A stretch of 58,653 nucleotides of DNA, the filler included, from Dimargaris cristalligena (taxonomy: Eukaryota), in NCBI GenBank assembly GCA_003614675.1. It is 5 parts of 5 records of this genome, joined end to end, with 100 filler letters (N's around TTAATTAATTAA, not from the genome) between each part and the next. Parts side by side here need not be neighbours in the genome. Positions count along the whole stretch, not along the records: positions 23,520 to 35,175 come from ML003095.1; 4 more parts are not named here. One strand, 5' to 3'. Of this stretch, positions 11,663-35,275 are shown piece after piece. How positions within the stretch are numbered: position 1 is the stretch's first letter; each line of letters opens with the position of its first letter. The notes under the pieces are model-generated. The model was not told the DNA's origin, ran no database searches, and saw only the letters and a program-made list of their open reading frames with translations. Made by a program: the position numbers and the translations under genes.

Positions 11663-11762
11663 NNNNNNNNNNNNNNNNNNNNNNNNNNNNNNNNNNNNNN
11701 NNNNNNTTAATTAATTAANNNNNNNNNNNNNNNNNNNNNNNNNNNNNNNNNNNNNNNNNNNN
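11663..11762. other. Artificial contig-joining spacer (N44-TTAATTAATTAA-N44)
   Basis: 100-nt spacer with a six-frame stop linker, identical at four places. Confidence 0.97.
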
Positions 11763-18579: not shown

Positions 18580-19614
18580 TTAAAAGTCGCCGGCATAGGC
18601 CGCGAAGTTCTGCGTCCACATGTTGCCGACGCGGGCAATCGCGATGCGGTGGTTATCCGTGCTCATAATGTTAGCGTAGTGCCCGGGGGAGGCGATCCAG
18701 GAGTCCATGACTTCCTGTTCGGTGGTTTGTCCTCCGGCGACATTCTCCGCAATGGAGGTCCAGGTCTTACCCAGGGCATCCATCCGAACGCTCATGGAAC
18801 CACTGGGGTCATCGTGGGTCACTTTGCCGGACGTTTCCATGTATTTTGTGTGGGCCAGAGCCATCTTTTCCAAAGTGGCGTCGTAAATCAGGGCCGGCAA
18901 ACTCTTCTTGGCCCGCTCGGTATTCACCAACTTCAAAGCGAGCTGATTGTCGGCCGTGTTACCCGAGCTGGCCACGGGAGGGGAAACCGGAGTGGAGGTA
19001 GGAACCGCCACGGGAGTCGTCTTGGTTACCAAAGGAGTAACACTGGCGGCAGTGGTCTTGGTGACGGTGGGAGTAATGCTGGCGGGAGTTACCGAGACGA
19101 CGGGAGTCACTGAAACCGCGCTGGTGCTCGAGATGACTTCGGGGGTCTTGGTCTCATTAGTGGTTACTGGGACCACCGACGAGCTAGTTGCGATGGTCGT
19201 AGTTTGGGCAGCTTTGGTGGGAGTTACCGAAGCGGCCGAGGAAGACGTGGTCATCGAAATAGCGGTAGTCGAGTCGGACGTGGTAACAACTACACTGGTG
19301 CTAGATTCGGCAGCAATTGGAGTAGTAGAAGACGACTCATCGTCGATGGTGGCGGTAGTAGCCGCGGCACTGGACGACACGGTGTTGGAAATCACCTGGG
19401 GCCGAATGTAGCCAAGCAGCGCCGGGGACATCGAGGTGGGAATGGTGATAGATTCGCTGGTGGAAATATCGGTAGGGGTTTGCGTCTCCACAGTGGTGCT
19501 GTCCAGGGCGATGGACGTGGTGGCAGATAGGTGAGGGCGACATTTCAGCGGAACTGGGAGGGCGTTAATGGTGACAGCCAGTGTCAACATACCGATGATA
19601 TTAAGAACCTTCAT
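18580..19614 (-). CDS. Secreted CAP/SCP-domain protein with a long Ser/Thr-rich linker, 344 aa
   Basis: Signal peptide MKVLNIIGMLTLAVTINA; about 200 aa S/T/P/V-rich; C-terminal LVNTERAKKSLPAL..ALAHTKYM..VTH..IAENVAGG..VMDSWIASPGHYANIM..WTQNF. Confidence 0.9.
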   Translation of the reverse strand: MKVLNIIGMLTLAVTINALPVPLKCRPHLSATTSIALDSTTVETQTPTDISTSESITIPTSMSPALLGYIRPQVISNTVSSSAAATTATIDDESSSTTPIAAESSTSVVVTTSDSTTAISMTTSSSAASVTPTKAAQTTTIATSSSVVPVTTNETKTPEVISSTSAVSVTPVVSVTPASITPTVTKTTAASVTPLVTKTTPVAVPTSTPVSPPVASSGNTADNQLALKLVNTERAKKSLPALIYDATLEKMALAHTKYMETSGKVTHDDPSGSMSVRMDALGKTWTSIAENVAGGQTTEQEVMDSWIASPGHYANIMSTDNHRIAIARVGNMWTQNFAAYAGDF

Positions 19615-22600
19615 TATGAATGGTGATGTAGGAAGGGGAGGGAACTGGGGTAAAAAGAGTGAGGTATAGTCGACTAATAGTACTGAAGGCTTCGGGGTAA
19701 AACTGTAATGATAAATAAGCAATTTGCTTTAAAAGGCGTTCGTGCAGAAGATTACTTGAATTCAAAAGGTCAAATGCGAGAGGATGAGACTGAGTACCAG
19801 ACACAGAATCGAATGGGCGTGCGGAATGCTAAGAAAATGATATGGGTGTATAAATGTGTGTGCGTTGAAAAATAATTGCAATATCGAGAACTGAAAGTGA
19901 AACGAACCTAAAGGTAGGAATAGTTAATTAAAGATATGATCAGATATAATGTGAGTTGATCGAGTAAAAAGCGACGGAACTTGCTAGCCACCAGTGACTA
20001 AACCAAGATAATGTGTCGGTAAGGGGGGATAATTAGCGTAAGGGAGAAATGATAATTGTGGTATATTTGGTGAGGGCCAGACTTTGTCACTTTATATGAT
20101 TGGGGCCATCATTGATGGCGACTTGCCCGGCTAATTAAGCCGGGAAGCTGGTGTGGGCGTCGATGTTTGAGGGGCAATTGTTGCATAGCAACCTACCTAA
20201 AGTAAAAGGGAGCGGAAAGGATGGGAATGCGAAGAGGTGATCCCAGTGATAGTGCTGCCGGATAAACAGATGCCCCAGCCTCGTTCAGGATTGCTCTCCC
20301 CCCTTCCTAAGAAGGAGGATCGTATTAAATCCAATGACTGTAGGAGCAAATTGGCTGGAGGTGGTATGGCGGAAGCTTAGAATGATCAACAGAATAAGGT
20401 ACCATTCGAACACCCACCCTTCATCCCACTGAATTAATGGCGATTCAATACCAAGTCAAAGTGGGTTGAACGGTCCTTGTCCCCTTTATCCATTACACTC
20501 TCACCCACTTCCCTCTCCACTTCTATACACAAGGGCCATCCCTCTGTAGCTTTTTTTTTTAAAAATAAAGTCGAGAAAAGACACCATCTCAGCTCCCCAC
20601 TTCGAATATCTGACTAAAGTATCCGCTAGATGGGCTATGCCCCAAGGAACTGATAAAATGTTCCTAAACTCCTTTTAGCCAGACCAGCGACTGGTCTTGA
20701 AAGTCTTGATCGCCACCCTGCGTCGATTACAGTAGGTTTCCATATATGGTGGGATTGTATTGGAATATTCGGTATTCGTGGATGGTTCCCTCCTTGGTAT
20801 TTGCCTTTATCCTACCTACTTCTATCCTTATGTTTATAGTATCGCCCAACACTATTGGCCATAGCCACCCTAGTAAATAAAACCCACAAGACCCACTGAC
20901 CGTATCCTCCATTAAACCAAAATAAATAGTATGGGGGTGCTGCTTATACTTGGCGGGCTTACTCGTCATTGTCACTCGAGAACTGGCCCTAAACACTTTG
21001 CCTCTAAGTACGAATTCATTGGAGCCCAATGCGATATGGCCCAGCACGGGGAAATCCCGATGATCCCGTGCCCTAGTGTTTTGCCGAGGCATGGCTCCAG
21101 CTACTTTCGCCAACTCTCCAGAGTGATAATACCCACGCGACTGTAACCCAGGAACACTCTTATGACCAATCACTGTTCAAAGCGACGGCAAAGGGTGAAT
21201 GCTCACTGGACTTTAAAAAAGCGTTCGACTTCCCCGACATTCCCGTTCCGCCACCTATAGGGCAGCTTTATGATGGCTGGACTATTCGATTATGTAATGG
21301 GCATTTGATAGGAGTTTTTTTATATTGTCATACGAATTAAGTAGTTCGGGTATGAACGCGGTAACGGGAGCCAGTCATCACACTGAAGTCCGTCAACACT
21401 GGCTCCACTGCGCTGATGCATTAAAAGCCACCTTCGCTTATTCGTCAGTATCGCCACTTCTATTCTCACCATGTAATTGCGAGTGGGAAATAATGGGTGA
21501 TATTCACATTTGCTCAGTCGAGATCGCTGAAAATGAGGGTAACGAGGACCTACAGATTTAAAGAATAGGCAGGCTTCAATCTGGGGAAATGGTTCTTGGA
21601 CGTGCATAACAAGACTCAGCGAGTGACAGTAACATAGTTATATACGCCATCCTTCCATAGACTGTTCGGTAATCGAGTGAAAAAGCGAGACCTTCGCCCC
21701 GATTGATTCATTACCAAGTAGGGGTAGTCCTAGCATCTTTCGTCATTTTAGTTTTCGACTGCTGCCGAAAAAAATAATGTGGATTAAACCGGTTTCTCGG
21801 ACTTAATTCCGTTGGGGTGGCGGTGAAGGCCAGAAAGGTAGATCATCCATCATCAAGCCTGGCAAGCGATGAGGCTCCCAACGGACCGCTCATTGGCCTC
21901 AATAGCTCTCCGAGCGATCCAGAATGGTTTTGTGACTAACCGAATTAGGATAGAGTCGGTTGATACCATATCCATAATTGGAGGGTGGATACACTGAGTA
22001 AAGTATGGAATAGCAGGGCGGAGTCACCATTATGAAACAGCCGTGGAGGCACTCTGTATCCACACTGGCCAACTTCGTAACGGTATAACGACACTGTAGT
22101 GGGGGGCCCTTTTAAAAGTGTAAGCCCAGAAGCGGTGCTTAGGGCCAAAGTTGCCAATCCACAATCCAGCCGGTCCGCAATACCACTTAAGGAGAAGTGG
22201 TTCCCGTAGCCCCCCCCCCTTAACTGATAAGGGTGTGCTCATTGAAAAATCACAATTTACCAATGTTTTCTACTTCCAATGGTGAACAAAAATATATGAA
22301 CGAGTAAACATAAGTATAATTTCATTAATAATCCCATTCGGACTATAATGCAGCTTGGGTAAATGCATTGACCTCTTAAAGTCACTTTCAAATTCAACTA
22401 TAATTTAAATATAGGTGTATAATATAGCCGTTAGGCGAAGTGGGCCACACGGCTACAGAACGCCTACAGCAGTCCACCAATTTAATTACCCGGCTCGCTC
22501 CCCCGCCTACACCAGACAAGCGGTGAACTGTAGCCGCCCCAGCCAACATACAAATAGTCAAGAAGTATATGTCGAATAGACATGCCACGAAATCAACTAT

Positions 22601-23364
22601 CCAAGTTTCTATTAAATAATTATAAAATAAATGGTTTAGAATGCTTCACTTTAGAACTCTATCCCATCCAACTCGCCATTTGGTTGGTTTTCATATCCTC
22701 CCTACTCGGAAATCCAGCTTCTCCAAAGGCCCTTACTCGGCCTACCCGTTGCAATTAGTCACCCAGAGCCAGTAAGTTACCCGTGACCAATTAATCAGTT
22801 TAGTTAAGTAAAATGAATATCTGAGTAGTAGTGCAATAGTTGGTTATTGAGAACTACGGGGATATCTAAGGTTAACCTAGTCTCCCGGATGAGCAGACCT
22901 CGATAACCGAGCAATGGATGCCCCCCAATTGCGAGCCCCGTTTATAAAGCGGAAACTATACACACGTCATCCACGGTTTCTCGTATTTTAACCAATAATT
23001 TTAGTTTTCGAATTTATGTTCGGCCTTCCCCCTTTAGTTAATTCGGGCCCTACTTGGCCTACCGTTATAGTAGGGTAGCTACTGTCCAGTTGCTACAAAA
23101 TCGTATCTAGCTCCTCATAGATCTCCGCATCACTCCGTTTAAATTATAATATCTTATCATATTAATATAACTGGCATTGCTATTAGTTGTATCAGCAGAC
23201 TGAAAATATGGCATCTCAATTTTGGCGTATTTACACACCGTATTCACGACTCATCCGGGGACTGTTTTTTTTGTGATAGAGGCCCCTCACTGATGAGGCT
23301 GTTTAAAGGTATACATAATTTTTCTACTATTAGAGCCGCAAAAAAAAGCGCAATGTCCAAAATT

Positions 23365-23419
23365 TGATTTCTGCCGGATTCGAACCGGCGACCGTCTGTG
23401 TGTTAGACAGACGTGATAA
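23365..23419 (-). tRNA. tRNA-Val(AAC), 5' end cut by the contig end
   Basis: Minus strand reads TTATCACG-TCTGT-CTAACAC-ACAGA-CGGTC-GCCGG-TTCGAAT-CCGGC-AGAAATC-A: anticodon arm with AAC, T-arm and 3' acceptor strand. T-runs (Pol III terminator-like) follow downstream. Confidence 0.88.
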
Positions 23420-23519
23420 NNNNNNNNNNNNNNNNNNNNNNNNNNNNNNNNNNNNNNNNNNNNTTAATTAATTAANNNNNNNNNNNNNNNNNNNNNNNNN
23501 NNNNNNNNNNNNNNNNNNN
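23420..23519. other. Artificial contig-joining spacer
   Basis: N44-TTAATTAATTAA-N44. Confidence 0.97.
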
Positions 23520-24960
23520 ATAGTTATTTAGTTTGGTTGATTTCTTATATATACCTTAGCAGCATCCCCTCAGTTGAAGGGACAAGTTAAATTTGAGATA
23601 AGTGTTTTTGTGATATGTTATTTTTGATATAAGCCTCTATTACTCAGAATAAACATTTATATTAACTTCACTAGATAATGCCAACAATTGTCCTTTACTC
23701 AATTTTATTTAATTATCTTATTACCACCACTCCTATTTGTTTTACTTTCATTCACTTAGTTTGAAGTTGTGGTATCTCTGAGTACTGAATTGATTATACC
23801 ACTTGATTATACCATTTTTTCATAATATTTTTAGTTTATTTTATTTTTCTTATCAAATAACAATGTGAGATAACAATGTACAATGTGATATATGACCAAA
23901 ATGTCAGTGGTGACTTCTCCATGGCCACCTCAGTCTTGACCCCCTTAAACCCAGCAAAGTCCAACCCTCTGCACTATATAACAAAATATGGTGACCCATC
24001 CAGTGGAAAGAAACTGGAGGTACCCCCTCCTACAGACACTCCCAAAGACAAACCAGCAGAGCCCCTTAAATTATTGGTAATACATTAAAGAGGATAAGTA
24101 AAAACTAATTAATATTCAGGCTCTGGAACACAGTCCCCAGCTATGCCTAGTCCATAATACTCAGTTCTATATTAATAAGTCCTATACCTACCATCAACCT
24201 AAGGAACGGACCCTATTCATTACTAAGTGGGGCCATATGGTGTCAGAGGATACCCTGGATAACTGGATCAAATCCCTATTACAGGAGGCCTAGATTATTA
24301 CCAACATCTTCTCAGCCCATTCCATTTGGGCTGCTGCATCTAAAGTAGCCTACCAACTCAGGTTTAGCCAGGAAGAGATCATGAAATCAGCTAACTGGTG
24401 TGCCTGGACTATGTCTATGGACTATTATGACTGGCCAACCCCATATAAAAATATGGCCAAATTGGTCCTGATGAATTATTCCCATGATAGAAGGGGTAAT
24501 CATCCCATTAGATGGCCTGACATAGTATAATGCAATTAAAGGGAAATTCTGACCCTCATAATCAGGAGGATAGCTGGCCCCACAGTGCTCTCCTTCAGGA
24601 GGACAACCTGCTGATGTACATAGTATTAGAAAAACCACAAGTTCTCTCACAGATGTAATCCGGGATTGATAATAATAAAGCTTGTCAAAATAATTAGAAT
24701 TGAGGAAAGAGCCGTAAGGAGATGATGAAGCTCTCTGTGGTAGTTTTTATTAAGGAAAATCTGATCAATAGGGGGCCAGTAAGCATGTACCACATCAGGA
24801 AGTGTATTCCACACTCGGGATGAGGTGGTTTTCTAACACATAGGGGTCCAACCAACCCCCCTAATGGGAGAGGATGGCAATCCCGTACCAGCATAAGAAT
24901 TACATCTTGCCCCAGAGGAATAACACTACCTGCCCAGTGGAGAAGAATTCTGCGCCTTTA
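23520..24960 (+). mobile_element. Decayed, CpG-depleted transposon relic, probably a DIRS-type (tyrosine recombinase) element; boundaries approximate
   Basis: Almost no CG dinucleotides from 23520 to ~24650, AT-rich, and contains the recombinase fragment below. Confidence 0.6.
24123..24440 (+). pseudogene. Tyrosine recombinase C-terminal half (DIRS-like), inactivated
   Basis: Reads LEHSPQLCLV..RTLFITKWGHMVSEDTLDNWIKSLLQEA*IITNIFSAHSIWAAASKVAYQLRFSQEEIMKSANWCAWTMSMDYYDWPT. This matches the DIRS recombinase pattern LCPV..LF..VSxDTIxxWIKxxLxxAGIDTxxFSAHSxR.A..ILxxANW..YxRP. In-frame TAG at 24291; the catalytic Arg of HxxR is TGG at 24327. Confidence 0.8.
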
Positions 24961-25530
24961 AATAAAATACTTTTATTTTACTAATATACCAATAGTTATT
25001 TCACGCCTGTACCTGCTCTTCTTAGTACCTTTTCTTTTTACTTCATCCTGACCCACTCGGTACTAGGCTATATTATCATTAAATGCAATGTAAAGTCATG
25101 GTGAAGGGCCATGGTAAATACTGAGAGCCATCATGCGCTAAGCACACCAATGTGAAATTGCCTAAACTGCTCATCTAGAGAGGGAAAATGACACAGTCAA
25201 TTAAGACTTAGTTATATGCCCTGCACCATTTGGCGGGCCGTGGCCATGGGTATGATTTAGTGGGGCGGTGGGGGGGCATACGAAGGTTCGAGAGGCGGGT
25301 AGGCAGAAATCCTCCTCCCTCCCCATCAGGAAAATAATTCAAATAAGAGGCAATAGGGGCACTGTCGGACAGTTACACCGAAGTGCCGGTAGTAGATTCT
25401 TGGTTGGACGTATATTACTTTTGGCCGATTTTTAAGAGAAAAAACAGAGGGGGGCAGATGGCCGGTTGCTGAGCGCCACATCCGACTGGTAGATTGGCAA
25501 GCCGGCGTCCTTCGTCCCTCTCGTTTCCTT

Positions 25531-25550
25531 TGTGTGTGTGTGTGTGTGTG
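25531..25550 (+). repeat. (TG)10 microsatellite
   Basis: Read directly. Confidence 0.9.
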
Positions 25551-26221
25551 ACTCGGGCTCAATAATGAGGCGGGTGGCTTGAGGCCTTCGTACGATGGCT
25601 ATTCCTCGAAGGGGAGTTACATAGCCAGTCAGGATACAAAAGCACCAAGGGAGATAATTCGCAGTGCAGGGTCATACCGTTTATATCTATAGAGGTGTAG
25701 TTACACACCTTCGCCGGCTCAGAGTTAGGATTAATATATTTTATTGGTTAAGCACAGGGGAGTAGGCGACCCAATTCAATAGCATGGATTGGAAACGGTT
25801 TCCCCCATCCGATTTTTGTGGAATAGCCCTTTGTGTTCCCATTGTAAGGAATACCCAAGTTAAGCGATACATCTGTGGTCATATTTTATATTAATCGTTT
25901 AGCCCCAGTGTGGAATACCATCAACCTCTGCATGTTATTGCTGACATGGGCGAGCTGCCCAAGGGCCTCCCTTCTTCCTTCCTTTATGGCACATATGCTC
26001 CCTCTTTAGTCTCTAGTCACCAATATATAAACATACAGTTTCCCCCTCGTTCTCATACCAACACACCTACTACCAACCTACTCTACTCCAGTTCCCACCC
26101 AGCCTCTCCTTAGTTCCTTTGCTTTTTACTGTTGTATTCGGCCGCCAGTAATCGCTCAACACAAGCCACACTCATCTTTTTAACTCATCCTCCACTTCCC
26201 CCTTCGACCTCCGTGGTAGAT

Positions 26222-27709
26222 ATGAAGCCGTGCCTTGTCCCTGTCACTTTGCTAGGCCTAGCTTTGGCCTGCAGTGTTGCCAGTCGCCCCCAGCCCGCGG
26301 ATTCAGGCAAAGAAATCGGCGGTCAAGCCCGTCATGAGGCAACCGACACTTCTTCCCAAACCAAACCCACCGGAACGCTGGGACCGCTTTCCTCCGAGAT
26401 TTTCTATAGCATCTTGAAACATTTGCCCGCAAATGACCGCTTCCATATTTCCAAGGTCAATAATCGTTTTAACAATTTGGTTAATCAGGACCGAACCACT
26501 CAGGAAATTTTCCAAGTAAGTTTCCTAATATTATCCCAAATAATATTCTGGTCCATCTGTTGTTCAGTTAGTCATTATCCGAATCGGCTCCCCTATTTTT
26601 ATGTCTCGCTTTTGAATAATGCTCACGCCGTCAGGGGGTTCGTGTTTAAATTATATCCTCATGCCTATTGACTAATACCTATATTTATTCATGGTATACT
26701 GTTAATATGTATACATCGCCATTTTTCTATGACCGGAAAGATTCAAATAGTCATCAAGACTCTATTATCGAGTAATGCTCCTATAACTTTGGAAGGTTTG
26801 CAAGCCCTCTTTCCAATGCAGCCAATGGACGCACTCATGGTTGCCGCCTGGGAATTTAGTGGTGGCTTTAATGGGGAAATACATGAAGATCCTAGTCAGG
26901 GTATCTTCCAAAACAACGCCCTAAGCCAGGAAAAAATCAAGGAGGAATGGGCATATTTGGACTATACCGGGTTAAACGTCCACCAAAGGCACATCTTATT
27001 CCCTGGGTTAAATTATTTTTCGGAATTGTCCGTGGTGGACATTCTCAATGTATACCAGAAAGTGAAGGGATTTTCTCAGCTCGAAATAACCAACATCATT
27101 GAGGAGCAGTATCAGCATCAAGAGATATTCGAAATCTTCGGAGATCGATTGCGACATATAGGGGTGACAAGAATTATATTTGATTTTGCGAATCAAATGG
27201 TGGTTAGCGTTATTGCGGACCTTGCCACTACTGGTCAATTTGACAAGTTGAGAGAATTGGAGAGAGAAATCAACCGTAACCATGTGGATCCTTACACTGA
27301 CTTAGAACCCTACCTGACTTTGCTGCGTTGGGAATTTGATGAATCCTATACTGGCCAAGATGATACGATGGCCAGTCGATTTAACTACCACTGTGGCTAT
27401 GCCGGTGCACTGGGATTCAAAAAGGCACTGCAAAAGTGCAGAAATTATACTTCACATTCTATAATAGGGCCTGAGTATCTTAAAGAATGGACAGCCAGTG
27501 GGTTTGTGTACCCGTACCGCGATGATAATGACAAGCCCAGGTTAGCTATCCGCGTCCGCCGCTCGACTGCTGAAGAATTAATCCAAGCCCGTGGATTAGA
27601 GATAGATGAGTCTCTTTGGCTTCCTTCCAACAAAGTCGATGACCAGCTCCATTTGATGAAGTATCGTCTATATAGTGTACCTTCTCCGCGAGCTCCTCAC
27701 CAGGTGTAA
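26222..27709 (+). CDS. Secreted protein with an N-terminal F-box motif and an unknown helical C-terminal domain; exons 26222-26515, 26741-27709; 420 aa
   Basis: Signal peptide MKPCLVPVTLLGLALACSVAS; F-box-like LGPLSSEIFYSILKHLPANDRFHISKVNNRFNNLV; phase-0 intron CAA|gtaagt...ggaaag|ATT joins two ORF-track frames; TATA-like AATATATAAA near 26022. Confidence 0.75.
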
Positions 27710-27899
27710 TTATTTCGAACTTTTGCCACCTCTGGCATTTTAGCGAATGGTTTACTTATGCCGTGGTTGGTATCCTTACCTCTTTACCCCTCAGTCAAGC
27801 CCTATGGACGATGCGGTAACCTTGCCATATCCCGTTTTTATGTGGACATTTCCACGGTTTTTCTTCTTCCCACTGTTGTCTTCTATATATAAACACTTG

Positions 27900-30000
27900 A
27901 GTTAATAAGTTTCAGGTACTCCAGGTCATTATTCACAGGTTATGAACAATATGTATGATTTACTGATACAAATGTAAATATCAATAATATGTGAGGATGC
28001 TTCATTTTTTGTCTATTTCATCAACAGCTGAGAGCTATTGAGTCTGCTACAATATTGGTTTATGTTTTCAACAATAAAAGTAGTGCTTGACCTGCCATAT
28101 TGTCTACATTATTGGTATGATTTACCCTTCTTTAGGGTTTCTGTACACCTAGGTCTTCTGCAAAACAACGTATTACATTTATTTTAATTGCTACATTTGG
28201 CAAAAAAAAATGCATAGTAGTCAGAAGTATCACTAATTCAACCTGGAAAGACAACAAACTGGCCTGGTAGCCACTAGAAAAGGAATTTGGCCTAAATGAA
28301 CAAGCCATTAGCATGCCTAGGTGAGTACATCATATTCCCAATCATATTACTAGCAAATGTATGCAAGCATAGGTAGCTAAGGAGGGGTCTTTTATTGATA
28401 ATAGTAATAAGAAGGGCCCAAGATAATAATAAGTGATTGTATGATAATATGAGGTAAATAAGACTATAGTCATCTGAGAGACAATATTAGGGCATACCAA
28501 TAGCTTGTTTTTAAATTAGATTATTGACATCCCCAATAGTAACTTTTGTAGGGCAATAGCTATGGACAAAATGAAGTTAGTACATGTGTCTAATACAGTA
28601 GAATGGGGGGGAGGGGGTATATACCTAGTGTTCTGGTAGGTTTGAGTGCCACTTCCTGATAATGTGCTGGTGCTACTATAACATGGTTACTCCCAGTTAG
28701 TACCCTTGTAATATTGTTGGGGGGTCTGATGGCCATAGGTAGAGTAGGCGCCTGTGGTGGCCTAGTTGAACCCCTGGTGATGCAATATAAATATCCAAAC
28801 TGATTGTCCCCCTGGGGTCTCTAAATTTAAAATATATGAAATAATCCTGAATTAGATAGTTTCCTAGCTATTATTATCTAACTGCAGATATGAGTTCTAA
28901 TCAGTTTTTTTAAATAATTTATTGTAAGCTCTCTTAATATCTCTATACCAGAAAAAACTATCTAACTAAGGCTTAATATTATAGAAGGGGCACTACTAAG
29001 AGTGGTAGAGAGAAGGTGAGATTCTATACTATGAAATAGGGGAGTTTTAGTCTGTCCATACATCAAAAACCCCAGTTGATAAATCCAGTATATTAGGCTA
29101 TAAACTGACATTTAGCCTATTCTCCCTTTTTTCAATTAGTATAAGAAATTGTAGTTAGTTAGATTAGATTTTGCCCTTAGTTATTGTTACCTGGGTTAAC
29201 TACTCTTAGTCCATCAAGTGCCCTGAGGATAGGCTTCTAACAGTAGGTGGGGCTTAGGCTTGGCTAAGTGGGCTATTAGTATTAGGTATGGGGCACAGTA
29301 CTAACTAATAAAGGCTAATTGCAGGTATAGGTGAGGGATATGCAGTGGGCACACTTACTAGTTAGTATGAGGGGGGTGAGTATATATAGAGTTTATTAGG
29401 GGAAAACTAGGGGTAAGAATAAGCTAAGGAATCAACCAGTCCTAATGGGGCCTAGCTATATATATGCAGGGATAACTCCAGAGGGAGGCCTTAAGGGGAG
29501 GATACTACTAAGACTAGGGTATAGGTAACTAGGCTAACTAGATGGCTACTAGTATCTGGAAGACTCTGATAGTAACTAGAAGAGTCTTTAGATTAGCACT
29601 TGAATGATGAGTATAAAGAGGTAGAGTCCAGAAGGGGAAGGGTGATATAATATAGGATAATCCCATATTACCAGGGATGACTATGGGAAGGTTAATATGG
29701 TACTATAAGGCCTAATAGGGATAGACACTAAGGCATCAGGATTAAGGAGGATTAGATGGTCCAACAACCAGTTCCCTGATAAAGTAGTGGCTGTCCCGCA
29801 CAGCTGGGGACTAACCAATATTGCCTTACCCCTACCCCCTACTGTGCATAAGTAATAAAGTTGCTATAAGGGCATATAGGCATTATTAAACAATCTGGTA
29901 AATAATATGAATCCCTCACACAAGCAGTCTTAAATATAACTAGATATGCTGTAACCTCAAAGCAATAATAAATATCAAGTTGTAGGATAGAATCACAGTT
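27900..30000. mobile_element. CpG-depleted, AT/TA-rich degenerate repeat tract; boundaries approximate
   Basis: Only a handful of CG dinucleotides over ~2 kb, stop-rich in the frames I translated, and includes a segment repeated (inverted) at 34601-35013. Confidence 0.55.
29292..29705 (+). repeat. ~415-bp dispersed repeat, copy A
   Basis: Aligns end to end with the reverse complement of 34601-35013 (e.g. gtactaactaataaaggctaa, tatatatagagtttattaggg, cagtcctaatggggcc, gtaactagaagagtctt, tgactatgggaaggttaatat). Confidence 0.9.
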
Positions 30001-32003
30001 CATACAGTATGCTGGTTTCACGGAATTAGTTGTATGATATATATTGAAATTTTACTTGACACTGCATGTCAATTTAATATGCTGTCAGGAAAGTGTGGCT
30101 ATAAAGTGCGCCTGCCAGTCCATTGTGCAACTTAGTGGATAGGTTTATTATGAATTTTATACCACCAAGATTACTTAGGAGATATAAGAAAGTGGCTATA
30201 AACATGTTCGAGTGGGTAAAAGAAAGCCGGAACCTACATTATCTGCATCCTACACCACGCCACCTAACCTCTGATGCATGCTATTGACTGGGCTAAGGGT
30301 GCTTTCAACCGGGGAGGCAGTATCTACATGGGTGGTGGACCAAAACCTGGGAGGAACATAAAATGAGTTGTCAATGTGCTAATGGGCCAATCAGCAAAAA
30401 CCCTCTACCAGCCACCAAGGGTCGCCCACCCTTCCCGTAGGGAGCCCCTCTTTTTCAAGACAAAAGAACTATCCCTATTACATATAATTGATCGCTGCGA
30501 ACTTTCTTTACTAAAGGTTCATGAGTCTTTGTAGACAGATCTTTGATCGTACTTAGCACAATGCCGTCGCATATAGATTGGCAGTTAAAGGGCTGACCGG
30601 GCAATTAAGAGGACCCGGGAAATATAGAGCCGTTGAACAGCCCACGATTAAGCTATACCGCCCAACTCTCTGCCTAGCCAGTGAGCATTACAATAAATTT
30701 AACGACTGACATGTATCACAGCTAATATCGGCCGGATGAAGCTGAGGTATGCGGAATACTGAGGAAAAATTCCCACCTTCGGACACTATTAGCCTGGACT
30801 AAGGAAATGATAATTTGTTTAAAAAGCCATGTATTATGGAGGTTTTATGTATTTGGTTTACATTATGACGGGAAACCCAGAATATAGAAGTGATTGCTTT
30901 GCGACTGCTTATTTCGGTGAACCCTCGTCGCAACAGCTCTGACAGAAAGGACCGAATGAATCACATTTCAATAAAATAATGTAACGCTATTTACTAAATG
31001 TATTTAAAAACAAATGATATAGCAATGTACGAAGCACTATTGCCAATATCCACCCCACGGACCCTGTTTCTTTCAATAGAGCTATCAGCCATGCCATAGT
31101 TAGCCGAAGAATGCCACCACTAGCACCACAGCACTCTGCAATAGGAGCCCATGGGCACTACCCGTATACCTAATTTGCGCACAGCATAACTGGAACCCAG
31201 CGGTAATAAAAAAATAATGGGAGGGAGGGGGGATTGCCCATACGGCTACCATAGCCCCGCTCTCGAAAACTATTAATGATGGCCAAACAGGAGAAATGAT
31301 GGGTAATCCTTGTACTATTCACCATTTTCTATGGGGATCTACTTCAATTCTATTCGTTGTCTTAATGACCCACTTGCCTTTAACATATACTTGAACAATG
31401 GAGTACATACCAAAAAGCAAAGCGTTCGTATTGAATGAGAGAAAGTTGGACTTCTTTCTAACGAATAGGATAGGGCGACTCTTCAGCTTACACTTCAACA
31501 TGCGGCGAAACTCAACACATCTGCATATTCTTTTAAGTGAAATGCAGGTGTGATAATCGATCGGCAATCGATTTTCAACCTATAGAGACCTTTTTTAAAA
31601 TCGGCATTTCGTATTTCCGCAGAACTGAACCGATCCCCTAAATATTCTTTGTACTGGCGGAACAGCGGCAACGCACACAGAAGTAGTGAGATTGCCCACC
31701 ATTTACCCGGTGGACAGGGGTAAACTGGCCTGTGTAAATGGGGAAATAGTTTTGCTGAGTTCATAGCTGTAGCCGGAACTAGATGATGGGTATCCTATCT
31801 TATATATAAAGCATGTGGTGACCACCCTACTTCACACCATCATTTCACCGACCTGCATTCCATGAATTTCATATTTAATCATCGAAGCCCCTTACTCTTA
31901 TCTCCGTCAGCTTTATAACTTAGCATATTAGTCTATCAATCCTACTGTGACTAACTTCTCCAATTTTACCGTCCTTTTCCCATTCCTCCACTGCCCCTTG
32001 AAA

Positions 32004-32288
32004 ATGAAGCTCTCATCTATGTTTGCCGTTTTGCTCGTCGTAACCATCGCCATCCTTTCGGCAAGTGCAGTAAACAAGGAAGACGAAGCTATCCATAGCG
32101 CAAACTGGGCTAAGGATTACCCTAACTTGAATAGCATCGTAAACCCCCCCGCTCCCACTAAACCCCGAATCCCCAAAACCAGAAGCGAAAAGATTAAGGG
32201 TATTGTCTCGAGTCCTTTTAAAAAGATGGCCAGTGTGACCTCCAGTCTTACAAAAAAGGTTATGGGTGCGTTCCATAAAAAAAAATAG
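32004..32288 (+). CDS. Small secreted protein, 94 aa, with a cationic C-terminus
   Basis: aaaATG start; signal peptide MKLSSMFAVLLVVTIAILSASA; TATATATAAA at 31801-31810; Lys-rich tail ending FHKKK; no cysteines. Confidence 0.75.
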   Translation: MKLSSMFAVLLVVTIAILSASAVNKEDEAIHSANWAKDYPNLNSIVNPPAPTKPRIPKTRSEKIKGIVSSPFKKMASVTSSLTKKVMGAFHKKK

Positions 32289-34600
32289 CCCCTGGAGAAC
32301 TAATGTCTAACTTCACTTTTTATAAACAGCAATTCAACGAGTATGGTATACATGCCTGTTTTTCAATACCCCCTGTACTTTCTATTTCTGTACGCCACTA
32401 TTCCTTTACTGTTTTAGACAATAGTTTATTAATTCAACATCAATACTTTTCAATAAACCCTATTCTTGCCTCGACTAGCCTCGGGTATCCCTTAATTGTG
32501 GGTGTGCCGGCAACAGTGCTTGATTAAGTAGTAGAAAATACATTTTATATTTACATTCAAGCCATATTCCAAGCCTAATTCGGCCTGTGGAATACCAGGA
32601 AAAACCAGTACATTGTAGCTACGTATCCGTGAAATTCCCACCCTATTTGAACCGGCCACAGTCCTCGGCTGCAGTTGATACAAAACCCCGCAATTCTGGT
32701 GAAAAGTGAACTTATATGGCTCTATAGTTAGATGAACAATACGGACTGTTGTCGCCAGCTACTTCCGCCAATTATTTATTAGAATAAGTCCTACCCTATT
32801 TCTAATGCCTTGTCGCCGCCAGTGGGACTCGCTTTGCTATTACAGTGGGTACTGTAAACCAATTTCCTGGCTTCCCCTGAACTGAACTGCAAAAATATTC
32901 CTGCTATTACTACTTTATCTTGACGACTACTTCCTACAGTTGCCTATTATATTTTGTTCAAAACCTACACCCAGACAGACATCATAACCGTGCCGACTAT
33001 CCCCTAATTCCGATATGCCAATAGTCACTTGACTAGTATTTAAATATATAGGAGAGATTCAACCAAGCTGCATGACAAATTGTCCGCTGGATGAGGCAAA
33101 TGTAACAGGTTAAATAAAAATTTTGTATCTGTTGTCCCATACACATACTATGTAGAGCCTTATACAACTGGGCCGAATTTCATCCATATAGAACATTGCA
33201 AGTCAAATATATGTGAAGGAAGCGGGAGATGTGAATAATAGTCATATAGCAGGATTATCTAATTACCGGCCTTGCAGCTGGTGCAGAAAAAATTTTTAGC
33301 TACTATTGCACAGGTAAAGCCACTCGTATGCCCACTAGATTGATTACCCTATATCAATTCGTCACACACAATCCTCGCCCGAAAATATAGGGCTATTCAG
33401 ACAACGGCAGTCGCTGACTAATGTGGAGGAATTCCACCGTAGGTATAATTATTAGGGGGCTAAGGGAGCTTCCAATCGGCGGGGCAATTCATGTATAGGC
33501 GATGTATTAAACGCTGGGGGGATATAGCAGGCGCTGCTTAAGAGCCCATCCACTGAGCCTCAGCTCTAGCGTCCGAGGATTACGCACCCTTCCCGTGGGG
33601 CCCTCTCTATTACGAGGCAGAGTCGCCGTGTTAGTCATCTGGTATTTCTCTAAATGACTTTGCTTTATTGGAGGTTTTAAATTCTTTGTGGAACGGATTA
33701 TCAGTTCCATTTCAGTGAAAGTCACTGCCAATATATTGACAGTTGAGCTAGTCATCGGGCCAGCAAAAGCATAGCGAGAAGGTGAGGGAAAGTACCCACA
33801 TGCTGGCTATTATTCTCTCGAGGGGTATTGTGGTGATGGATAGGGGAGGATGGTGGTGCGTAGTCCCCCAGACATTTGGAATTTATCCTCATCTCATATT
33901 ACCCCCCGTTAAATAAATGGGAATCCTTTTTTTATGCTCTTCACAACAATGCCCCATTTTCCTGACGGATTGTTAAACAATAGAGGATGGGCCATTTAAA
34001 TGGCGCTCATATTAGTTTCCAGGATGCCGGTCTATTTTCCAGTGAATAGGGTAGAGTGGCTCGCCAACCTACTCTTGGATATGGACAAAACTATCCACAA
34101 CTATATACGACTTTGGGCAAAATATAAATGTGATAGTTGAGCAGAATTTGGTTTTTAACCACCGAGACTCTTTAGCAAATGGGGTTTTTGTATTTCCATA
34201 GAATTGACCTGATCCCCTATATGTGCTATATTAGCAGAACTGTGGTAAAATACCCAGAAGTAGCTGATATGCTTGCCCTTTACTATTGGGAATGAGATGA
34301 CCATTATATATTACTGGACTATCTAATCCACCTTAATCTGTCCAGCTTAGATGCCTGACTATATTAGGCCTTATAGCTATTGAAGAATATATTACAACAT
34401 ATTCATTATCCTACCCTGTTTTACCTAATTATATTAGTTTATTTTGCTATTATGAGATTATTTATATTAGCTACTTATATTTCACCCCATTAAAATTACA
34501 GTTCAATTAAACTAACCATCTAGAGACAACTACTGTCCTCTAGCTCCTTTCTTCCCTTACTTCCAATTTTATTTTCTTTATGTCCTTAGTATTCTAATAA

Positions 34601-35013
34601 TAGTACTATATTAACCTTCCCATAGTCACCTCCAGTACTATGGGATCACCCTATATTATATAACCCTTCCTCTTCTGGACCCTACCTCTTTGCACTAATA
34701 ACTCAAGTCCTAATCTGAAGACTCTTCTAGTTACCACCAGAATCTTCCAGATACCAGTGGCTATCTAGTTAGCTTATTTACTTATATTGTGGCTCTAATA
34801 GCATTCTTCCCTTAGGACCTCCCTCTTGAGTATCCCTGCATATACACAACTGGGCCCCATTAGGACTGATTGGATTCCTTAGTATATACTTACCCCTAGT
34901 TTACCCTAATAAACTCTATATATACCCACTCCCCTTATACTAGCTAGTAAGTATGCCTGCTGCATATCCCTTGCCTATACCTGTACTTAGCCTTTATTAG
35001 TTAGTACCATGCC
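34601..35013 (-). repeat. ~415-bp dispersed repeat, copy B (inverted relative to copy A), within a CpG-depleted tract ~34170-35175
   Basis: Reverse complement aligns with 29292-29705; differences are mostly transitions. Confidence 0.9.
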
Positions 35014-35175
35014 TGCTGTAAAGAACTGAACTCAAATCCTTAAAAACTGAACTTTATTCAAAAAGATAGATAATAAAAGGGAAAGGTGATAATAGACTTG
35101 CTGTTCCAAGAGGTGGAAGCAAGGGGGAGTATTTATACTTGAAAGAGGAAGCCTAAATAAAAAGATAGATGGATA

Positions 35176-35275
35176 NNNNNNNNNNNNNNNNNNNNNNNNN
35201 NNNNNNNNNNNNNNNNNNNTTAATTAATTAANNNNNNNNNNNNNNNNNNNNNNNNNNNNNNNNNNNNNNNNNNNN
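35176..35275. other. Artificial contig-joining spacer
   Basis: N44-TTAATTAATTAA-N44. Confidence 0.97.

Follow-up and report, generated by a model that had tools for sequence, protein, structure and literature searches.

The present analysis deals with a gene of the fungus Dimargaris cristalligena that lies at positions 26222..27709, on the + strand, of a stretch of 58,653 nucleotides (nt) from assembly GCA_003614675.1, the whole of which is called the window here. The window consists of five parts of the genome joined end to end, and the gene falls in the part that comes from ML003095.1 (positions 23,520 to 35,175). The gene has two exons, and its spliced product of 420 amino acids (aa) contains a signal-peptide-like leader, a polar linker, an F-box and a long C-terminal domain. 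An earlier note on this DNA had described such an arrangement and had seen in it an effector delivered into a host cell, for example through the haustoria of a mycoparasite. The arrangement of leader, F-box and unassigned domain proved to be real and common to a lineage-restricted family of proteins. The label "candidate effector" is justified by what can be read from these sequences; a hijacking of the Skp1-Cullin-F-box (SCF) ubiquitin ligase of the host would be a further inference. The features of the gene are the following.

26222..26515, + strand: exon 1, 98 codons from the ATG at 26222, with leader, linker and F-box in one open reading frame (ORF) (translation, Pfam)
26222..26284, + strand: signal-peptide-like leader, residues 1-21, with n-region MK, hydrophobic core and c-region SVAS
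26285..26377, + strand: polar linker, residues 22-52, which opens with a conserved X-P-X-P (RPQP)
26378..26494, + strand: F-box, residues 53-91, with the Pfam PF00646 match at 56-91
26516..26740, + strand: predicted intron of 225 nt, GTAAGT...AG, phase 0, with the AG at 26739-26740
26741..27709, + strand: exon 2, 322 codons and a stop codon (27707-27709), coding for the family-specific C-terminal domain and a Pro-rich tail
27500..27565, + strand: most conserved motif of the C-terminal domain, GFVYPYRD...LAIRVRRS (family alignment)
26024..26030, + strand: TATATAA, a TATA-like element that precedes the start codon by 198 nt (pattern scan)
28073..28078, + strand: putative poly(A) signal-like hexamer of the AATAAA/ATTAAA type, 364 nt past the stop codon (pattern scan)

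The unspliced frame runs into a stop codon, and removal of the intron keeps the frame. The G+C fraction of the intron is 0.36, as against 0.51 and 0.44 in the two exons. When the 420-aa product was aligned with the annotated paralogue P0004 (449 aa), a single high-scoring segment pair covered residues 1-420 of the former and 1-449 of the latter, across the junction, with an E-value of 1.8e-69. An alternative in-frame acceptor would place the start of exon 2 at 26759. Acceptor models scored against P0004 gave 216 bits for 26741, 214 for 26759 and 192 for 26822. The predicted junction 26515/26741 is supported by this homology and by the splice signals. The intron at 26516-26740 and the product of 420 aa, both proposed in the earlier note, agree with the GTAAGT...AG signals, the kept frame and the end-to-end alignment, and a mechanical list of ORFs does split the gene as had been remarked, into separate ORFs of 149 and 326 aa. 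The only Met of exon 1 is the start codon. Since exon 1 holds leader, linker and F-box together and has one Met only, neither the intron nor the choice of another start has any bearing on the pairing of leader and F-box. The start codon at 26222 has an A at -3, and the pattern scan found no ATG between the TATA-like element (26024) and 26222. No further copies of the family were found in the window by tblastn with six proteins.

The N-terminus encoded by exon 1 reads MKP, a hydrophobic core and SVAS, followed by RPQP. On inspection, the leader has the tripartite n/h/c make-up of a signal peptide, with K2, a hydrophobic core and small residues at -3 and -1 of two candidate cleavage sites, one between SVA and S (after A20) and the other between VAS and R (before R22). 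Its Kyte-Doolittle maxima are 2.41 over 11 residues and 1.90 over 19 residues. The leader of a CAP-domain protein encoded elsewhere in the window gave nearly equal values (2.47 and 1.92), and a peptidase M3 control gave an 11-residue maximum of 1.53. It was found that the 11-residue maximum is 1.8-2.9 in all 15 leaders scored, and that in most of them the N-terminal 19-residue maximum stays below 1.6, the classical transmembrane threshold for windows of this length. Outside the leader, no 19-residue Kyte-Doolittle window of the protein reaches 1.6. Judged by hydropathy, such a short core is more in keeping with a signal peptide than with a transmembrane anchor.

An N-terminal alignment of 16 sequences contains 15 with a leader, and all 15 have small residues at -3 and -1 directly before [RH/L]P. 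Directly after the presumed cleavage site most leaders are followed by X-P-X-P, seen as RPQP in the window copy (26285-26296) and as HPHP, RPYP, RPRP or RPKP in others. Golgi dipeptidyl aminopeptidases accept X-Pro dipeptides as substrates. The X-P-X-P motif could equally be a protective or a targeting signal. The CAP-domain protein of the window, a classical secreted protein that served as the internal control for leaders, has LPVP where the F-box family has X-P-X-P; this follows a leader that reads MKVLNIIGMLTLAVTINA and precedes a long Ser/Thr-rich region.

The polar linker, which had been estimated at about 30 aa, occupies residues 22-52, and the string that had been read as a good F-box pattern corresponds to residues 53-87. 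PF00646 matches residues 56-91 over profile positions 4-39 of 43, with 28.7 bits and an E-value of 1.2e-6. This is above the curated gathering score of 20.5, which paralogue P0004 also exceeds (25.0 bits), and the window copy has the highest Pfam F-box score in the family. The earlier note had named two Pfam profiles by which the F-box could be checked; PF00646 bears it out, but the second, PF12937 (F-box-like), gave 18.7 bits and is under its cut-off of 24.3. When exon 1 was searched against PDB sequences the top match was the F-box of FBXL3 (4i6j_B), with a non-significant E-value of 0.62, and in the comparison of exon 1 with longer proteins none of 271 candidates reached E<=0.01.

No Pfam family was found in the 322 aa encoded by exon 2, even at E<=10, in line with the roughly 320 aa that had been left without assignment before. 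A leucine-rich repeat (LRR) or ankyrin repeat was found neither in 30 relatives (Pfam, E<=0.1) nor in exon 2 (E<=10). The domain is recognized by its conserved motifs, which are SVSAVLATTGQF, LLLEFD, CGYA..LGF, GFVYPHRD and LAIRVRRS, and R271 and V272 of exon 2 are near-invariant across 27 sequences. The mature parts of the proteins contain 0-5 Cys, two members being without any. When the family profiles A2 and A4 were compared with PDB, the matches were to NEK2 (E 0.18-0.23), designed armadillo proteins (E 0.04-0.3) and uteroglobin fusions (E 0.035), none of which is significant. A relationship with kinases was rejected since the HRD motif of the family is not collinear with the NEK2 match. 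In the ESM Atlas, paralogue P0005 (model pLDDT, that is, predicted local distance difference test, 0.33) gave a best feature score of 0.86 with template modelling (TM) scores of <=0.32. Paralogue P0034 (pLDDT 0.41) gave a best score of 0.89, to unnamed clusters of Ascomycota, as well as HEAT-repeat models at TM 0.40-0.47 and F-box clusters at 0.82. All of these are below the thresholds set for leads. The armadillo matches, and the HEAT-repeat neighbours of the low-confidence model of P0034, are no more than a lead towards an alpha-helical repeat in the C-terminal domain.

The C-terminus of the close subfamily carries a conserved Pro-rich tail, [FY]R..[FL]P.P[RQ]..[SP].Q[EQ], and the window copy (27662-27706) finishes in YRLYSVPSPRAPHQV. 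The divergent subfamily has a different C-terminus (...IPDWL...). The Pro-rich tail is possibly a short linear binding motif.

A word-based search with exon 2 found four proteins with 36-46% identity (E 2e-66 to 3.7e-26), all from Dimargaris cristalligena. A profile of these, run against 1.84 billion representative proteins, gave 28 matches at E<=0.001, 25 of them at E<=1e-10. One match, P0027, was discarded as spurious: it is a protein of 1218 aa made up of tandem repeats, and the match to it was broken into 13 short stretches. The remaining 27 are all named D. cristalligena and come from two assemblies. The C-terminal domain of the window protein is homologous to P0003-P0030. A scan of metagenome contigs for relatives gave 183 pattern matches, none of which was confirmed. 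As far as sequence searches tell, the family is confined to D. cristalligena in the databases searched. Among 5.8 billion clusters searched there was no protein identical or near-identical to exon 2, and the window paralogue seems to be absent from the protein collections covered. The M3 peptidase of the window falls into a 90% cluster together with a metalloendopeptidase named D. cristalligena, in keeping with a window from that species or a very close relative.

The architecture was counted over the window copy and the 27 clusters (28 in all), with alternative gene models included. The hydrophobic signal peptide claimed in the earlier note corresponds to the leader at residues 1-21, and such a signal-peptide-like leader is present in at least one model of 17 of the 28 clusters. 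The other 11 start within the F-box or the C-terminal domain, on short contigs or in truncated models, or, in the case of one alternative model (P0079), with an unrelated polar N-terminus. The F-box segment was detected in 12 of the 28 clusters with a hidden Markov model built from the F-box columns of the family, a count that is circular for the 11 rows on which the model was trained. In each of these 12, one model or more begins with the leader. Beyond the window copy and P0004, which pass the Pfam cut-off, seven clusters bear the name "F-box domain-containing protein" in UniRef. The leader is the best-conserved region of the family, with a mean pairwise identity of 0.50 in its columns, as compared to 0.13 in the linker, 0.21 in the F-box and 0.19-0.30 in the blocks of the C-terminal domain. 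The mature parts are thus diverged to about 20% identity in these alignments while the leader stays best conserved.

Some paralogues are clustered, as the locus tags of P0014/P0033 and P0029 are three apart on one contig of 28,276 nt. In cluster 20 (P0020), one assembly fuses an upstream gene for a small secreted protein (P0037) to a family member (P0036, 528 aa), which indicates that the gene models of the family are unstable.

Contigs from six sequencing runs, all of them DNA, were compared with the window. One contig spans 25900-27900 with 0 differences and may be the source of this DNA. A contig carrying a paralogue matches the leader and linker at 26234-26360 (23 differences in 127 nt) and also 27488-27587. 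The two matched stretches are 1179 nt apart in the paralogue contig and 1128 in the window, so the layout of the gene is similar in the paralogue. A second paralogue contig is about 88% identical to 26597-26682 within the intron (10 differences over 86 nt) and about 80% identical to 26766-26839, near the beginning of exon 2 (14-15 differences over 74 nt). This hints that the mature protein could be evolving fast, the coding sequence faster than the intron, in a comparison of small numbers in which the 80% cut-off biases the matches recovered.

The gene lies in a stretch of about 15 kb (19800-35200) in which the two exons of the F-box gene are the only ORFs of at least 150 aa and the G+C fraction is 0.38-0.46. 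In the window this stretch is flanked by genes for EBP, a protein kinase, UTP10/HEATR1, a peptidase M3, a DEAD helicase and a HECT_2 protein. The gene for the CAP-domain protein (PF00188, 61.9 bits; cysteine-rich secretory family) is at 18580-19617 on the - strand, 6.5 kb upstream in window coordinates. An ORF of 94 aa at 32004-32288 (+ strand) has a signal-peptide-like start, MKLSSMFAVLLVVTIAILSASA, and a Lys-rich tail, and is a candidate small secreted protein. Three adjoining pairs of inverted repeats (114, 42 and 232 nt; 82-88% complementary) at 29292-29706 and 34600-35013 bracket about 4.9 kb, which includes this ORF. The region may be a transposon whose terminal inverted repeats are long, or else a foldback element. 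Four paired runs of N are present at 11663-11762, 23420-23519, 35176-35275 and 46926-47025, about 11.75 kb apart (2 x 44 nt each); they resemble masking more than gaps in an assembly, and none of them touches the gene.

The interpretation starts from the sequence architecture, the family, its restriction to one species in the databases searched and its pattern of conservation. The best reading of these, which we hold tentatively and at somewhat less than an even chance, is that of a secreted effector that would recruit Skp1, and with it the SCF, of the host. Leader and F-box are in one polypeptide, encoded by the one ORF of exon 1, which is what a delivered effector of this kind would have if the leader functions as its sequence suggests. 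That an F-box protein should bear a secretory leader is understandable if the protein does its work in the cytoplasm of another cell. The SSGP-71 family of the Hessian fly and the bacterial RipG/GALA effectors follow this logic. The leader would carry the protein into the endoplasmic reticulum (ER), where cleavage would fall ahead of the conserved [RH]P-x-P. What would then be secreted at the hyphal or haustorial interface is a soluble mature protein, poor in cysteine and about 400 aa long, which would get into the cytoplasm of the mucoralean host. There the F-box could dock on the Skp1 of the host, and the SCF ligase would be redirected to the host proteins bound by the variable C-terminal domain. 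ER entry, cleavage, secretion, entry into the host, binding of Skp1 and the role of substrate receptor are all steps that we infer. The guess of a haustorial mycoparasite in the earlier note fits what was found: every named relative is from D. cristalligena, and the Dimargaritales are described as mycoparasites that form haustoria on hosts belonging to the Mucoromycota (PMC10386755).

A number of observations weigh against an effector that recruits Skp1. Only two of the 31 family sequences scanned (the window copy and P0004) reach the Pfam F-box cut-off, and P0031 (13.6 bits) and P0033 (17.8, F-box-like) are sub-threshold in Pfam. The canonical Pro of the F-box is replaced by Ser in the window copy (LGPLSSEI), and no F-box protein was matched when the family profile was compared with PDB. 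In five of the clusters that bear the leader no F-box segment was detectable. There is no depletion of N-glycosylation sequons, of which 32 were observed against 28.1 expected from shuffles of 13 proteins. That relatives were seen in one species only may be due in part to a lack of further annotated proteomes from the Dimargaritales, and we know of no route from the haustorium to the host cytoplasm for D. cristalligena. Other explanations of the family have points in their favour as well. F-box proteins normally work with cytosolic or nuclear Skp1, and the protein could be an endogenous F-box receptor of the parasite's own SCF, the hydrophobic segment being either a membrane anchor that keeps the F-box cytosolic or a segment that is not used, and the expansion of the family being a matter of lineage-specific regulation or defence. 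The 19-residue hydropathy of 1.90 in the window leader, where four windows reach 1.6, would suit an anchor, and sequences that are poor in cysteine and undepleted in sequons resemble those of cytoplasmic proteins. Such a receptor is nevertheless unlikely in our view. In most paralogues the N-terminal 19-residue hydropathy stays below 1.6 and the core is broken by His, Thr, Ser, Gly or Pro. The charge pattern, with K/R at positions 2-3 and a net charge of about zero in the 15 residues past the core, favours translocation of the C-terminal side by the positive-inside rule. Moreover, the invariant small residues at -3 and -1 ahead of [RH]P have the appearance of a signal peptidase site, and the leader resembles that of the CAP-domain protein.

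The leader was found in 17 of the 28 clusters and the F-box segment in only 12, a difference that would suit a family that is secreted, or resident in the lumen of the ER or Golgi, whose F-box-like helices have lost the recruitment of Skp1 or never had it, and whose C-terminal domain acts in some other way, in the host or extracellularly. By Pfam most members score weakly for the F-box, the mean identity of which is 21%, and the best-conserved motifs are located in the C-terminal domain. Against this, the window copy and P0004 are above the Pfam F-box cut-off and seven more clusters carry an F-box name in UniRef. The L-P-x-E and hydrophobic pattern is kept between subfamilies that are about 20% identical elsewhere, which suggests constraint, and the few Cys of the mature proteins, with 0 in two members, would be unusual for extracellular proteins. 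Such a loss of Skp1 binding seems improbable to us rather than negligible. It could also be that the window copy itself is an unexpressed or decaying paralogue whose intact frame is a recent relic, which is compatible with any of the other readings. Its protein has no near-identical counterpart among the 5.8 billion clusters, in which the M3 peptidase of the window was returned, and the gene stands in a stretch (19.8-35.2 kb) that has no other ORF of at least 150 aa. Yet both exons are open, the intron has the canonical donor GTAAGT and ends in AG, the start codon has an A at -3 and a TATA-like element upstream, all invariant residues of the close subfamily are retained and the F-box score is the best in the family. 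The sequence recurs unchanged in contigs from two studies, and this DNA may itself derive from them. Taken with these features, a silent copy is very unlikely.

The proteins of the family are already public as "hypothetical" or "F-box domain-containing" entries. Among the papers listed in literature searches, none was found to describe this family or a secreted fungal F-box effector, and supplementary tables might list predicted secreted members. The term "F-box" occurs 0 times in the main texts of PMC6784888 (the D. cristalligena genome) and PMC9391592 (a zygomycete secretome). The secreted Skp1-recruiting effector preferred here would, in its boldest form, be the first secreted fungal F-box effector family and the first hijack of an SCF by one fungus in another. 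About 28 diversified paralogues would share a leader and [RH]P-x-P N-terminus that may serve processing or host entry, each with a new, possibly alpha-solenoid, substrate-recognition domain for different host proteins. This bold form is conceivable and rather doubtful. To our knowledge, almost nothing is known of the molecular control of hosts by biotrophic mycoparasites. If the effector reading is true, it would extend to parasitism between fungi the E3-ligase mimicry that bacteria, viruses and a gall midge are known to use. About 28 candidate effectors would be defined, with binding of Skp1 as a clear biochemical test, and a new substrate-binding domain would be in hand whose targets would point to pathways of host defence or nutrition.

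F-box effectors that are delivered into a host are known from bacteria, VirF of Agrobacterium and AnkB of Legionella being examples. These are alike in that the F-box is N-terminal to a target-binding domain and in their mimicry of an SCF receptor in a eukaryotic host. They differ in being exported by type III or IV secretion, without an ER signal peptide, and in having LRR or ankyrin domains at the C-terminus. RipG7, of the Ralstonia RipG/GALA effectors, is reported to bind SKP1-like proteins of Arabidopsis (PMC4617103). C-terminal LRR or ankyrin repeats of the SSGP-71 or GALA type were not found by Pfam in the window protein. With the canonical F-box proteins (PF00646; FBXL3, 4i6j_B) it shares a profile match over the cut-off, the match to FBXL3 itself being non-significant. 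Those proteins have no secretory leader, whereas the window protein has one, with a C-terminal domain that is not LRR, WD40, Kelch or FBA by Pfam and with Ser in place of the Pro of the canonical L-P motif. Among pathogenic Ascomycota, the L-P-x-E-R motif proteins are described as having remote F-box-like N-terminal motifs and no predicted secretion signal (PMC3914424). Going by that description, they are similar in being fungal, associated with pathogens and F-box-like at the N-terminus, but differ in that no secretion signal is predicted for them.

The closest precedent is the SSGP-71 family of the Hessian fly (Mayetiola destructor). Its proteins are reported to have a signal peptide, an F-box and LRRs, some members being without the F-box, and the F-box of one member binds Skp1-like proteins of wheat and is needed for its effect (PMC7330099, PMC4617103). 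Both cases concern a eukaryotic parasite with a leader followed by an F-box, in a large lineage-specific family that includes F-box-less members. The C-terminal part consists of leucine-rich repeats in SSGP-71, whereas that of the D. cristalligena family has no Pfam family, and there is no detectable sequence relationship between the two. SSGP-71 proteins are made by an insect and act on a plant, while producer and host would both be fungi in the case of D. cristalligena, and the binding of Skp1 reported for the Hessian fly protein is a putative property of the D. cristalligena family.

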